From contig MU053881.1 in assembly GCA_013239625.1 (NCBI GenBank), positions 12,662,879 to 12,726,878 of the forward strand: a DNA stretch of 64,000 bases, written 5' to 3'. Made by a program: the position numbers and the translations under genes. Within the stretch, counting starts at the first letter, position 1. Each line of letters opens with the position of its first letter. This document shows positions 10,116 through 58,369 of this stretch, piece after piece. The notes beneath the pieces were generated by a model, which was not told the DNA's origin, made no database searches, and worked only from the letters and a program-made list of their open reading frames with translations. Source of the stretch: Lama guanicoe. Lineage: Eukaryota.

Positions 10116-11129
10116 AAAGAAGCCTTCACTTCCCTAATCATTCTTTCCATGTATGACTCTGGCATTCATCACGGTAGTAAAGTTGTTAACACACTATGTT
10201 ATTCTTTTTGCATTAATGGCTTTGCTGTCTGTGTCATTTGCAAGCGATTAGCTACTTGGCTTTGCCTTCATGGGCCTGTGGGTAGTGCCCGTTTGAATCT
10301 GAGGGCTGTGAAGGGGAAACTAATTAGAGCCACGTGGGTGAGGTTTCAGGGGCTGAACTTCCCGTCGTAGGAGGGAAATCAAGCAGCGGAGTTCGTTTCC
10401 TCAAACTGCATTGAGGAGAGAAGATTTGTGACAGAAAGAGGCCAAATTACACATCTCGAATAAAATGGGCACTGGCTGTGAGGGAAAGGAGGCACTTTAA
10501 TTGGTGATGGTACTGTCACATTTGCCAGATGCTGTCACCATGGGAGTGATCCCTCCAGAGGAATGTTAGGTCAAATGAGGGAAGAAACACCCATCTTTCT
10601 CAGCGTGCTTTGCCCTTTTGGAGCCGTTCAACATGTCAGGTAAAATAAGTTTCATGATAGGAAAGTCAAGTCTCAATATCTATCTTTCTTTAACGTTGGA
10701 GAAAAATAAACTCTCCTTTTTAGGGTCTCTCTACACAAGGGATTTGTATTTGCACCTAGTCATTCATTATAGAATCATATAATTGCAGCATTAGATAAGG
10801 GATCTAGAAAAAACCACATGGATTAAGAAGCCAAGAAAAGAAAAATTTTATTTATAGCTATCAACATATCCTGGAATTTAGCTTATCATTGAAAGGATTG
10901 AATTATAAAATTTTAAAGCAAGAAAAAATAATAGCTATTTAATTTAACCCTTTTACTGTACAGTGATGTCTCTGAATTCTGGCTGGTTAACTAGAAACTG
11001 GAAATCAAGGTCTTTTAACTTTCAAAGTAGTGGCCTTTTCACTGTATTATGCCCTTCTATTGTAGTTCTTTTTTGAGCTGATGCTTGAAGATCAGACACT
11101 ATTAACATTTTAAAAAATATAGTGAGAAT

Positions 11130-12632: not shown

Positions 12633-13329
12633 CAGGTTGTCTTGCACGTGATGTTCTCATGATGAGTTCTTAGATGATGATGATGACCCTAAAACATCTC
12701 AAACATTTCTTGCCATACAGTTATTAGATTTTCACACTAAGACACATATATCCACAACAGATAAGTTTATTAACTGCATACCATAATGATTATTTACTAT
12801 ATTAAATGGAAATGGGTCATTATAAAGATCTTCATCCTTGTCATTCTCACATTGAGTAGGCTAAGGAGCAGGAGGAAGGGTTATTCTTGCTGACTCAGGG
12901 GTGGCAGAGGCTGAAGAGGTGGGAAGGTGGAAGAGGAGGCAAGAGAGGCAGGCACACTTGGTGAAATGTATGGAAATACATGGTAATTTCTGGCTGACTT
13001 TTTAATTTCTCTAAAAATGTTTTTATATGGTCCTGATCCTTCTTCCACCCTTCTACCATTTGCTTTAGTTTCACTGCCAGTATCATGTAAGGGTCCATGT
13101 CATAGAAGAAGTCATAAGCAATCTTGAATAATTAGAACCCTTCTGCCACATTGTGTAATGTCAATCTGTTTTTTGGCACTGCTTCTTCTTTATCTTCTTC
13201 CTCATCATTTGGTACCGGTTTGGAAGAGCTCATCTCCATCAAGTTGTCTTCCATTAATTCCCCTGGTGTGGTGTCTTTTAGATCTTGAATTTCTCCAAGA
13301 TCCTTATCTTGAAACCCTTCACCTCCACC

Positions 13330-13420
13330 TTTTTTTCCTTTTCTTCCTTCCTTCCTTCCTCTCTTCCTCTCTTTCTTTCTTTGTTTCTTTCTTTCCTTTC
13401 CTTTTCTTTCTTTCTTTTTT
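13330..13420. repeat. CT-rich microsatellite (CCTT/CTTT) inside the transposase
   Basis: Pyrimidine run flanked by T-runs at the MAKK/VG codons of the transposase. Confidence 0.85.
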
Positions 13421-14641
13421 TGCCATCTCCACAGTCTCTTTCATGATTTTCTTGATTGGCTCTGTCATAAATCCTGTGAAGTCATGCACAACATCTGGAC
13501 AGTTTTATCCAGCAGGAATTGATTGTCTTAGATTTCATGATTTTCATGGATTTTCTGTGGTAAGAATGATGGCATCTTCACTGATGTAATCCTTCCAGAC
13601 TTTAATGATGTTCTTTCTATGAAGGTTCTCTTCCATAGCATTGACAACCCTTTCCAATGAGTACTGTGTGTAATGAGCTTTATGACCCTCTGATCTAGAA
13701 GCTGAATTAGAGACATTTTGTTTGGGGACAAGAAGACCACTTTGACGTTTTCAGTATTGAACTTGTGGGAATTCTGGATGGCCAAGGACATTGTCCAGTC
13801 TCAAAGGAACATTAAAAAGCAGACTCTTACTGGCAAGGTAGTTCCTAACGTTAGGGACAAAGGATTGATGGAATCAATCCAGAAAAAGGGTTCTCATTGT
13901 CCAGCCCTTCTTTTTGTTCAACAAAAAGCCTGACAGCTAGTGTTTATCTTTTCCCTTCAAGGCTCAAGGGTTCGCAGCTTTATAGATAAGGTCAGTCCCG
14001 ATCATAAACCCAGCTGCATATGCACAAAACAGTAAGCCTATCCCTTCCTGCCTTAAATCCTGGTGCTCACTCTTCTTTCTTACTAATAAATGTCCTTTGT
14101 GGTGTTTGTTTTGTTTTCCAGAATAGGGTAATTTCCTCTGCATTCAAAACCTATTTAGGCTGATAGTCTTTCTCCTCAATGATTTCCTTAATGATGGCTG
14201 GGAACTCTGCTGCTGCCTCTTGGTCAGCAGAAGCTGCTTCTCCCATCATCTTGACATTTTAAAAGTCAAACCTCTTTCTAAAATTACCAAACCATCTTTT
14301 GCTGCCATTTAATTCTCCAGCTTTAGATCCTTCACCTTCCTTTTGTTTTAAGCTGTCATGTACTGACTTCACTTTTTCTCCAATATTCGAGTCTGTAGGT
14401 ATCCTTTCTTATAGCAATGCTGCACCCACATAAAAGCTGTATCTTCAATATGACTTCAAAAGTTCAAGGTTTTCATACCTGCTGGTGCAGCTGCAGGGAC
14501 AGCTTCATTAATTTCCTTTCCTTTTTTTCTTTTTAACAATAGTTTTTACACCAGATTCGCTTATCTTGAATTGGTGACAACTACGGGTGCAGACCTCACT
14601 GTATGGTACATACCAAGCAATTCAGCTTTTGCTTGTAGTGT

Positions 14642-15078
14642 TGTTACTGGAAAAGGGAAATAAGAATTACCTCAGTTCTTAATCATCTGAAAAAAAAAAA
14701 AAGTGAAAGATAGTACACTTCCGAGAATTGGGACCGGCCAATCCAAGAGAGAAAAAAATGGCGCCTTTCCTTTGTTTTTTTCCTGTTGTATCCTAGTTTC
14801 GCGATTGATTGATTGATGGACACCTCAGATTCCCTGCACTCTGGCACGCCCAGCCCCTTTTGGGCAGGTTCATTGGGTCAAGTTACACCAGGTCCCGCTC
14901 CCTTGCACAGCTGCAGCGCTTTGATTTTAACTGGCTTCTTTTACTGGCCCTCGTTTAGGGAAAGTAAAAATTTCGGGAGTCCCTTTTTCTGAATGCAGAC
15001 ACACTGCCATTTCTTGGGTTGTCCTTTTCTCCTTCCTCTCCCCTGCCCAGTGCTCATTTCTATCTGAACTACCTAACA
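14642..15078 (-). mobile_element. Solo LTR (ERV1-like) inserted into the Tigger2 transposase
   Basis: 437 bp, TGTTA...TAACA termini, 4-bp TSD GTGT (14638-14641)/TTGT (15079-15082); removing it rejoins KVLT-LQAKAE; orientation inferred from the TGTTAGGTAGTT start on the minus strand. Confidence 0.85.
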
Positions 15079-15099
15079 TTGTTAGGACTTTTCTCTGCT

Positions 15100-15520
15100 T
15101 CTTGGGCGCACTTCCAGAACCACTAGAGGCACGTTGTGTGGGTCCCCTGGGTTATTCAGGGTTTCCGGTATTTCGCTAAACACGAGGTGAGAACCGCGAG
15201 AGCCGCGAGAGCCGCGAGAGCCGCGAGAGCCGCGAGAGCCCAGAGAGCCCAGAGAGCCCAGAGAGCCCAGAGAGCCCAGAGAGCTCGCGTTACCGCGATA
15301 GGAGACTTACTGCTGCTCAGGCGGAAACGATTAGCATCACTGGCGTCTCAAGCGGATCCTCACAGCCCTGGAGCTTCTCGCGTAGCCTTAGGAGGTGGGC
15401 ACGAAATTACCACAGTGACTGCTGCACGGTATGTGCTACCGTTAATTTTATTCAGTTATGTCTTAATTCTGCATCTTTACGTTTGTTTTTGTTTCTCTCA
15501 ACTGCAAATGGCGCCGTGGG
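15100..15520. promoter_or_regulatory. Small CpG-island-like region in the Tigger2 5' end; candidate promoter
   Basis: About 28 CpG counted by eye in 15107-15441, against about 8 in the 1.6 kb of transposase at 13000-14600; + strand donor ACG|GTATGT at 15428/15429. Confidence 0.55.
15194..15283. repeat. Bipartite 9-bp tandem array (CCGCGAGAG)5(CCCAGAGAG)5
   Basis: Five perfect copies at 15194-15238 followed by five perfect variant copies at 15239-15283. Confidence 0.97.
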
Positions 15521-15792
15521 CAGTTTGTTGCATAAGTTTTGATAAATTTTAATGTTTTATAATAGATTTCTGTATATTGTGTGGTGGAAAATGATACAAT
15601 AGACTAGTATCTACGTGTAATTTATGCATTCAAGATACACCTAACATTTTCGTAATTTTTTTGGTATTTCTAGGCTACGTGGTTCGTCTATGAGTTTTTT
15701 CACACTTTTGGACAGCTCCAAAAGTTTTCCAGTATGTTTATTTCTAAAAAATCCCTGTATGAGTGAACCCATGTTGTTCAAAGGTCAATTAT

Positions 15793-16510
15793 ATAGTCAC
15801 TTGAGAAAACAAGTTAGTATTAGTTGGCAGATGCACATACCCTCAGAACCAGCAATTGTACACCCAGACATATACCTTGGATAAACTCTGACCTGTCTTA
15901 GTGATAAGTTATATATGTATATCTCACAGCTTTTTTTCTTTTTTTCTTTCTCCTGGGGGTAGGTAATTAGGTGTATTTATTATTACTATTATTTAGAGGA
16001 GGTACTGGGGATTGAACCCAGGACTTCATGAATACTAACCATACACTCTACCACTTGAGCTATACCCTCCTCCCCCTCAAGCTTTTTTTCTTAATAGAGG
16101 AAACAATCCAAATGTCTGTCATTAAAAACATTGGGTAACCAAATTCAGTTTGTGCACACAATTTAATAGTGAAATACAGATGGATTTTAAAAGCATAATG
16201 CTAATCAATCAATAGATAAAAGTTGTGGGAAAATCTACGTAAACCTTAAAAATACACATGAGCAAGCTTTTCAGCTAGGGATGTGTCTGTGGGACAAGTC
16301 TAAGGAAAGCCAATTGATGATTAAGAGAAACTTAGTACAGCTGTCACCTCTCAGGGGGTAGGGAGGGGCATCCAGGAATCTTCAAAACATCTGTAAAGCT
16401 CTCTTCCTTAAGCTGGGTTCTGGGTACTGAGTGTTTTATCATTATTTAAATCATACACCTAACAAACTTTAAACGTTGCTATGTATAAAATAGTTCACAA
16501 TTGAAAAGTG
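15793..16510 (+). mobile_element. Old L1 (L1ME-like) ORF2 end and 3' UTR, interrupted by a SINE
   Basis: gcacataccctcagaaccagcaattgtacaccc; aaacaatccaaatgtctgtca; cttaagctgggttctgggtac. Confidence 0.65.
15940..16075 (-). mobile_element. Vic-1-type SINE
   Basis: ggaggtactggggattgaacccagg..ctctaccacttgagctataccctcc; imperfect TSD ctca(c)agcttttttt on both sides. Confidence 0.9.
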
Positions 16511-56967: not shown

Positions 56968-58369
56968 TCTTCTGTGTGGTCTCCTGAAAATTAATAGCAC
57001 ATCTGATTGCATCTTTTTTCTGGAGATGCCTTTTCTGAAATAGAAGTTTACCAACATGTCTTTTTCTCAGGATAGAATGTGAGAAAGAACCATCTTTTGG
57101 AAGAGCCATGCCTTAACTTCTGTCAGAGTCCTGGAGCTGCACAGAGGCCAACATTTTAGGTTTGAGGAGAAGGGGAGATGCTAGGATTATGTTACTAACT
57201 TTGGAACAAATTTTGGAGGCACCCAAAATCTCATTTTGCTTTTGGTTTTATTTTAATTTTTTCAGCTTGCTTTAAAATCCTGAAAACACCTGGCAGATTT
57301 TACTGTGTATGGTGAAATGGTTACTGCAAGGAGCAGGTTGGGGGGTAAGGATTATTTCCTTTAGTCCAAGGGACATTCAAGGAGGCATGCACAGGAAGTA
57401 TATGAGCCATTGAATGGGATTGCTAAGGCATCAGTTCATCTTAGGTCCTGAAATAACATTGAAACAATAATAAGAGGTAAAGTTTACTAGTGGAAATAAG
57501 TGTAACAGATTGTGTAAATGAAGCATAACATATGCGTTATTATAGCTGACTACATGTGAAATGCACTTAAGCCAGACCTTATTGCTGATTTACCAAATTA
57601 TACTGGAAAGCTGAATGAAAGCGGGTAGGTTATCAGACTGCTCCGAGCTGGGCAGGACACAGTGAGTGAATGGTACTTTACTGGTCTCCATGCCATTATT
57701 CTGGTTGGGAGCACATCACAAATTATAAGCTTGTCCTCTCTGCAGCCAAAGCCTCATTTGTTAGTTTCTCTCTTTCTCTTTTGTTTTTGCAGAGTACTTT
57801 ATGATACACTAAATTAAACTGCAATGGCTGCTCCCTTGATGGAGGTAGAACAATCCCTCACTAATGCTCTCAGTGTAACTGTGGAACTAGATACAAGGTC
57901 AGTTTGCATTGTGCATGGAGTTCTTCTGAATGGCAGGCTCTGAGCTGGGCTCTGGGGGGGAGACTGCAAGAAGCCAGAAGAGACTGGTTTTTCCCCACCA
58001 GGGCTTGCAGCGCATTAGGACACCAATGACGCTCAAAACATTAGAAAGTGTAGAATTTATAAATTCTTCTAAAGCAGAGTACGTAATTATCAGAGGGGAA
58101 GTCAGAGTAATAATTGGTAGCCTGAGTATAACACAAAGGCTAGAATGACATGTTTTAAAAAAGCCTTTTAAAAAGCTATGAAACATTTAAAATACGTTGC
58201 TCAAACAATAATATGAGAGTCTTCTCGGTTATCACTGTGCACATTTAACAAATGTTAATATTAAGCTTTATTTCCTTCAAAAGCTTGTCCTTCTCTGAAC
58301 ATGTGCTCTTGGTTCTTTTGTAAAAATAGGACCCTGTGGTATGTGATGACCTACAGATGTGATGAGATG

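Follow-up and report, generated by a model that had tools for sequence, protein, structure and literature searches.

A candidate CpG island in the 5' region of a decayed Tigger2 transposon of Lama guanicoe

Structure of the Tigger2 copy and its solo LTR

The window, i.e., the whole stretch of 64,000 nucleotides of Lama guanicoe DNA analyzed here, is mammalian and AT-rich (ca. 36% GC), and its SINEs are presumably camelid. It contains a DNA transposon of the Tigger2/Tigger2f type, broken by a solo LTR (Table 1). In the supplement of PMC9219625, the trimmed protein rows for the TIGGER2 and Tigger2f transposases match the frames of this copy, which show the MYH variant as in Tigger2f, and 12 of the 17 candidate proteins are relatives at 66 to 78% identity. 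Against Pfam, the transposase body gives a weak DDE_1 match (E = 0.045, below the cut-off). We take the sequence at the right (TA at 15792-15793) to be the terminal end of the copy, while its 3' terminal repeat was not located within the window. A domesticated transposase was considered and ruled out, as the frame is broken by stops, frameshifts, the microsatellite, and the LTR. A second element with terminal repeats, at 1699-2049, which we also assume to be of Tigger type, contains five CpG (observed/expected ratio [o/e], 0.38) and has a TpG+CpA o/e of 1.27. Classification is treated in PMC5753468, and camelid transposable element (TE) counts are given in PMC8605555.

A preceding sequence-only reading had described the LTR and the Tigger2 5' end as nested elements, and this anatomy is borne out by the LTR ends, by the target duplication (14638-14641 and 15079-15082, with three of four letters equal), and by transposase frames that go on at both sides. 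The insertion point falls after approximately codon 23, and the frame resumes at 14641 as TLQAKAELLGMYH, in agreement with the Tigger2/Tigger2f rows of PMC9219625. The 4-bp length of the duplication suggests an LTR of the ERV1 class. Its minus orientation is assumed from a presumed likeness to bovine ERV1 LTRs. As it interrupts the transposase, the LTR must be younger than the Tigger copy, and it parts the 5' region from the gene. Within the LTR there is a run of 15 A at 14690-14704, with no AATAAA nearby on the minus strand, and the polyadenylation signal may have been lost.

Table 1 Features of the Tigger2 copy, its solo LTR, and the CpG-rich patch (positions within the window; a dot means no strand)
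Feature	Position	Strand	Description
Tigger2/Tigger2f-type DNA transposon	12790..15791	-	5' terminal repeat at right end; left boundary approximate
Decayed transposase body	12790..14637	-	Stops, frameshifts; CpG o/e 0.05-0.15
TTTC microsatellite	13340..13421	.	Inside transposase
Solo LTR, 437 bp	14642..15078	-	TGTTA..TAACA ends; 4-bp target duplication
ETS-like, CCAAT, YY1-like motifs	14717..14763	+	Inside LTR
Candidate non-coding exon or first-exon 3' end	15051..15186	+	Predicted; acceptor in LTR, donor in Tigger 5' region
Transposase N-terminal codons (…APKKQRKVLT)	15083..15151	-	Frame 15151-14930; severed from remainder by LTR
CpG-rich core	15107..15441	.	Tigger2 5' region, upstream of and overlapping transposase start
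9-bp tandem array, 11 units	15189..15289	.	5 CGCG-core units (across junction), 5 CpG-free, 1 variant
Best CGCG (BANP-type) element match	15291..15300	.	TACCGCGATA, incomplete element
Second candidate splice donor (15428)	15426..15434	+	ACG/GTATGT
YY1-like motif	15505..15515	+	Tigger 5' region
Tigger terminal end	15690..15791	-	0 CpG, TpG+CpA o/e 1.42; internal control suggesting local protection

CpG content and island tests

The CpG-rich core contains 28 CpG, with a GC content of 0.60 and an o/e of 0.93, compared with 10 CpG (o/e 0.45) in the LTR region (14642-15100) and eight (o/e 0.13) in the transposase (13000-14641), and these counts reproduce the earlier tallies. The patch had also been called the only CpG-dense one in the 64 kb, which holds, as no other 335-bp window exceeds nine CpG (mean, 2.05, in a scan outside 14.3-15.8 kb). 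When the array duplicates are left out, 22 CpG are still found in 15084-15520 versus 4.9 expected from the background o/e of the whole window (0.21), with a Poisson P of about 1e-8. A loose island test (200 bp, GC 0.5, o/e 0.6) is passed at 15006-15485 and 14719-14921, also after collapse of the array. The strict test (500 bp, GC 0.55, o/e 0.65) is passed at 14824-15445 as assembled and fails with the tandem array collapsed. On either side of the patch CpG declines gradually, fading to the right over approximately 250 bp, where an AT-rich shore (15442-15690) has a CpG o/e of 1.20 before the CpG-free terminal stretch.

A weaker CpG and GC bump is present on the plus strand at 10261-10484 (seven CpG, GC 0.50, o/e 0.54), which passes the loose 200-bp scan and is followed at approximately 10630-10645 by an ATG and a donor-like CAG/GTAAAA. 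Together they may form a further alternative first exon, or else an enhancer.

Retention or gain of CpG and probable germline protection

Methylated CpG decays to TpG and CpA, and the patch shows little of these products. Its TpG+CpA o/e is 0.90, or 0.99 without the array, versus 1.16 to 1.29 in the transposase, 1.18 to 1.20 in the remaining window, and 1.42 in the terminal 100 bp of the Tigger copy, where no CpG is left. The comparison of CpG retention with the remainder of the copy, which the sequence-only reading had proposed, contrasts the o/e of the patch with values of only 0.05 to 0.15 in the transposase and zero CpG at the terminal end. As all parts of the copy share one age, the protection would be local. 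Most likely the patch was kept unmethylated in the germline, as had been suggested; the part of that suggestion that concerns local protection stands, but eight of the CpG come from duplication and not from retention. Protection from methylation need not imply a promoter.

The transposase is an unfair control, because the 5' region, going by the Dfam consensus, was presumably CpG-rich from the start. On that assumed consensus, approximately half of the ancestral CpG would have been kept and about ten would be new, although the subfamily found here may differ. The Tigger2 5' region might then have enough CpG, or be left unmethylated often enough, to give most full-length copies the same appearance, and the patch does coincide with the natural 5' region of the element. 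We consider such a family-wide trait quite unlikely. Every CpG has been lost from the terminal 100 bp of this copy, and at background survival 22 CpG in 355 bp would require an implausibly dense ancestor. In addition, P0017, one of two collected protein fragments that extend into the patch, shows Tyr at the position of the CpG-bearing Arg codon present here at 15166, which, in this single sequence, points to retention.

Searches for other Tigger2 5' copies gave 0 of 4, 0 of 15, and 0 of 15 pattern matches that aligned outside the pattern itself. The 5' region had no match among plasmids or phages and no relative among viral contigs, Tigger2 DNA was absent from the supplements of PMC7386202, and a motif search of published texts returned only unrelated bacterial or parasite matches. 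More than 100 short translated mammalian Tigger2 fragments, in several frames, were present among the collected proteins (P0001-P0130); they are apparently gene calls on host DNA and can be used as proxies for ancestral states. As a stand-in for the DNA of other copies, we polarized amino acid differences against 127 proteins, leaving in three of the 117 matches of one search that were long, seemingly unrelated proteins. Columns were supplied by 126 proteins, and 213 of 502 columns satisfied the depth and majority rule: 171 unchanged, 14 A/T-to-G/C, 8 G/C-to-A/T, 10 ambiguous, 6 neutral, and 4 multistep. As protein searches with the downstream transposase frames found no matches, the test is limited to approximately 14000-14600, beside the patch.

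These changes bear on a rival explanation, in which the patch is the fossil of a transient recombination hotspot, produced by a burst of A/T-to-G/C conversion and VNTR slippage in methylated DNA, with no promoter role and now decaying. The GC content outside the array is indeed raised (0.51 versus 0.40 in the transposase), the changes lean toward A/T-to-G/C (14:8 here and 211:245 in the other copies), and P0053, the other fragment and again a single sequence, has Leu where the codon of this copy bears the CpG at 15107, which points to gain. However, the skew is not significant (P = 0.13), changes lying in two frames are counted twice, and the region lies outside the patch. Some of the A/T-to-G/C differences are common to other copies and may be subfamily states, and the TpG/CpA excess that renewed decay would leave is absent from the patch. 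A hotspot without protection seems rather unlikely, and what the substitutions give is a hint of GC-biased gene conversion near the patch. As to whether the CpG were wholly retained or partly gained, some gain by duplication is observed, and GC-biased conversion perhaps added more. In many mammals, hypomethylated promoter-like sites have been described to act as hotspots that are independent of PRDM9 and show GC-biased conversion (PMC11161765, the main text of which names no camelids), and ancestral conversion has been found just downstream of human transcription start sites (TSSs) (PMC13712754).

Tandem array and CGCG sites

Along the array, five CpG-bearing units are followed by five CpG-free ones. 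The five CGCG units carry two CpG each, so that duplication gives 8 of the 28 CpG. The two types of unit differ at two adjacent letters, for which simple deamination is not sufficient. The array is probably length-polymorphic.

Of the 13 CGCG tetramers in the window, nine fall in 14800-15382; each of these agrees with TCTCGCGAGA at 7 of 10 positions, with neither the full palindrome nor the tolerated single-flank variant among them. A canonical BANP/CGCG promoter was ruled out by these scores. The flanks of the CGCG element matter, as changes in them lower activity, and activity scales with copy number (PMC6192621). The locus resembles the bidirectional CpG-island promoters described there in its cluster of CGCG cores, some of them in tandem, and differs from them in that the full element is lacking and the array units have one correct flank.

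Promoter motifs and predicted splice sites

The sequence-only reading had listed seven promoter motifs, all of which are present where it placed them. Against 1,000 dinucleotide shuffles, however, five of seven motif classes compared, picked post hoc, are at chance level (P of 0.11 to 0.47), namely, ETS (P = 0.11), CCAAT (P = 0.20), TTCCGG, TCGCGA, and the GC-box. The pair of YY1-like motifs (14756 and 15506) was matched in none of the 1,000 shuffles, and the six TCTCGCG/CGCGAGA sites exceed all of them, five of the six being array units.

Some of these motifs lie in the LTR, and, following the suggestion in the sequence-only reading of a lineage-specific promoter assembled from two nested TEs, a two-part promoter can be imagined in which the LTR provides ETS, CCAAT, YY1, and the initiation site, the Tigger end provides the island and a splice donor, and the insertion of the LTR switched protection on. 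The LTR adjoins the patch and has the three motifs in that order within 50 bp, its left half has a CpG o/e of 0.65 with no TpG/CpA excess, and, among LTRs, those of ERV1 give rise to most TE-derived TSSs, with testis as the richest tissue (PMC12963367). On the other hand, the motifs may have belonged to the LTR family from the start, the CpG peak is entirely in the Tigger part, and the right half of the LTR, beside the patch, has an o/e of only 0.33. The LTR does contain the 10 CpG with which it had been credited (4.5 expected; o/e, 0.47), but the enrichment is borderline (P = 0.017), and an insertion younger than the Tigger copy would be expected to show it. We regard the two-part promoter as improbable, and it is just as doubtful that the LTR was necessary for the island.

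On the plus strand there is a strong predicted donor at 15186 (GAG/GTGAGA), which makes an alternative first exon plausible. According to the same crude splice matrix, 15051-15186 is the best of the 16 plus-strand acceptor-donor pairs in the window, and it has no ATG; on the minus strand, a donor is predicted at 14671. The interval could instead be a cassette exon in the non-coding leader of the host gene, the G and C downstream of the donor resulting from splicing-related selection or conversion. The rank of the pair and the lack of ATG fit such an exonization, but the ranking depends on that crude matrix, and most CpG are found on the downstream side of the donor, as is usual for first exons, internal exons being normally methylated. 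We consider exonization very unlikely. Two plus-strand open reading frames over the patch (141 and 120 amino acids) were rejected as genes, as they are opened by the array, have no Pfam match, and are not in the protein collection.

Four RNA runs from two studies (three of the runs labeled as reproductive system) and one possible RNA run contained only 0.05 to 0.15 of the sampled words, which is no evidence of expression or of tissue. Six runs of organism B (two studies), perhaps not independent of the assembly, contained 0.57 to 0.60.

Genomic setting

The plus strand has more T than A, by 0.05 to 0.08, in all five segments, upstream and downstream of the patch, and five of the six matched L1 pieces are on the minus strand. 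From this skew and the L1 orientation, the patch would be intronic, in a plus-strand gene whose start lies upstream of the window. The Tigger copy would then be antisense, and the action of SAFB on sense-strand Tigger insertions (PMC10901741) would not apply to it.

No coding exon was recognized in the 64 kb (27 of 118 open reading frames compared with Pfam; three matches, below the cut-off). A strong plus-strand acceptor-donor pair is present at 57793-57897, where the 24 codons between an ATG at 57824 and the donor form an open frame; this frame was matched neither in PDB nor in the protein collection. The pair may delimit the start-codon exon of the host gene, or a non-coding exon.

A proposed small orphan island of transposon origin

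The explanation that we somewhat favor is that the patch is a small orphan CpG island made from the 5' region of the dead transposon itself and protected in the germline. A Tigger2-type transposon would have inserted, probably antisense in the intron of a plus-strand gene, bringing along a CpG-rich 5' region, and a solo LTR would later have separated this region from the transposase. A segment of approximately 400 bp would have escaped germline methylation, most likely that of the sperm line, for much of its history, so that its CpG did not decay like those of the remaining copy. The array would have grown by slippage from a single 9-bp unit with a CGCG core, G and C may also have been contributed by GC-biased conversion at this open site, and the outcome would be a small promoter-like island.

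The main evidence for an orphan island is that the CpG excess survives removal of the array and that the decay products are low in the patch and high elsewhere in an insertion of the same age. The strong plus-strand predicted donor and the CGCG cluster also agree with it. By analogy, so do the graded flanks, which resemble the sloping shores of hypomethylated islands (PMC4509998), and the behavior of promoter-like hypomethylated sites as PRDM9-independent hotspots (PMC11161765). Against it, CpG can be maintained and newly formed by GC-biased conversion alone, with no need of hypomethylation, and there are also the failure of the strict scan without the array, the incomplete CGCG elements, the chance-level motif classes, and the lack of a recognized host-gene coding exon in the window. 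Moreover, CpG islands are on the whole underrepresented at human TE-derived TSSs, and promoter strength is lower in old elements (PMC12963367).

That the island is also a used alternative promoter, spliced from the predicted donor at 15186, is possible but on balance doubtful; this proposal and the one that gives the LTR a role both overlap with the orphan island. A more speculative extension, which we hold to be unlikely, is an island that builds itself: the CGCG half-sites amplified in the VNTR would hold the promoter region of the dead transposon open, openness would draw PRDM9-independent recombination, and GC-biased conversion would add CpG, in a lineage-specific process that drives an alternative first exon.

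Comparison with known systems

TE-derived promoters are well known as a kind. Domesticated Tigger genes borrow a host CpG-island promoter, as in TIGD1-EIF4E2, which is similar to our locus in that the 5' end of a Tigger lies under a CpG island. In that pair, however, an intact transposase is combined with an island of the host, whereas here the transposase is dead and the island consists of transposon sequence. In humans, 26,056 TE-derived TSSs have been mapped in a RAMPAGE atlas, mostly in SINEs, LINEs, and LTRs; they are TATA-rich, and few come from DNA transposons, with Tigger absent from the main text (PMC12963367). In the pig, TE promoters include the MLT1F1-SRPK2 testis promoter (PMC10839656). 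Our case shares with these systems a TE that is probably intronic, a candidate donor to a host gene, an LTR of ERV1 type, and an expected germline bias. It differs from the human atlas in that the island is in a DNA transposon and in that the atlas consists of mapped TSSs, while our site is read from sequence.

Repeat-associated CpG islands (PMC4509998) offer a second parallel, an island carried in by a mobile element and with graded flanks. They are mostly retrotransposon-derived, unlike the long-dead DNA transposon found here, the other parts of which have decayed. As in PRDM9-independent hotspots (PMC11161765), the patch is promoter-like and locally raised in GC, and a hotspot of this type would explain retention and gain of CpG together, but our conversion signal is not significant and the site is predicted from its bases alone.

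No Tigger2-derived CpG-island promoter was found in the literature searched (titles and abstract openings, with few subscription journals covered). A promoter in actual use here would be one of the rare ones supplied by a DNA transposon; otherwise, the patch would be a local compositional oddity. How CpG islands newly come into being where the DNA is AT-rich and methylated is still an unsettled question. When the island lies in an old transposon, the ancestral sequence is known and the element itself offers internal controls of equal age, so that CpG that were retained can be told apart from those gained through conversion and those gained through slippage. If the island did build itself, the birth of a CpG-island promoter would be readable base by base, with the consensus as the ancestor and the LTR dating a step.
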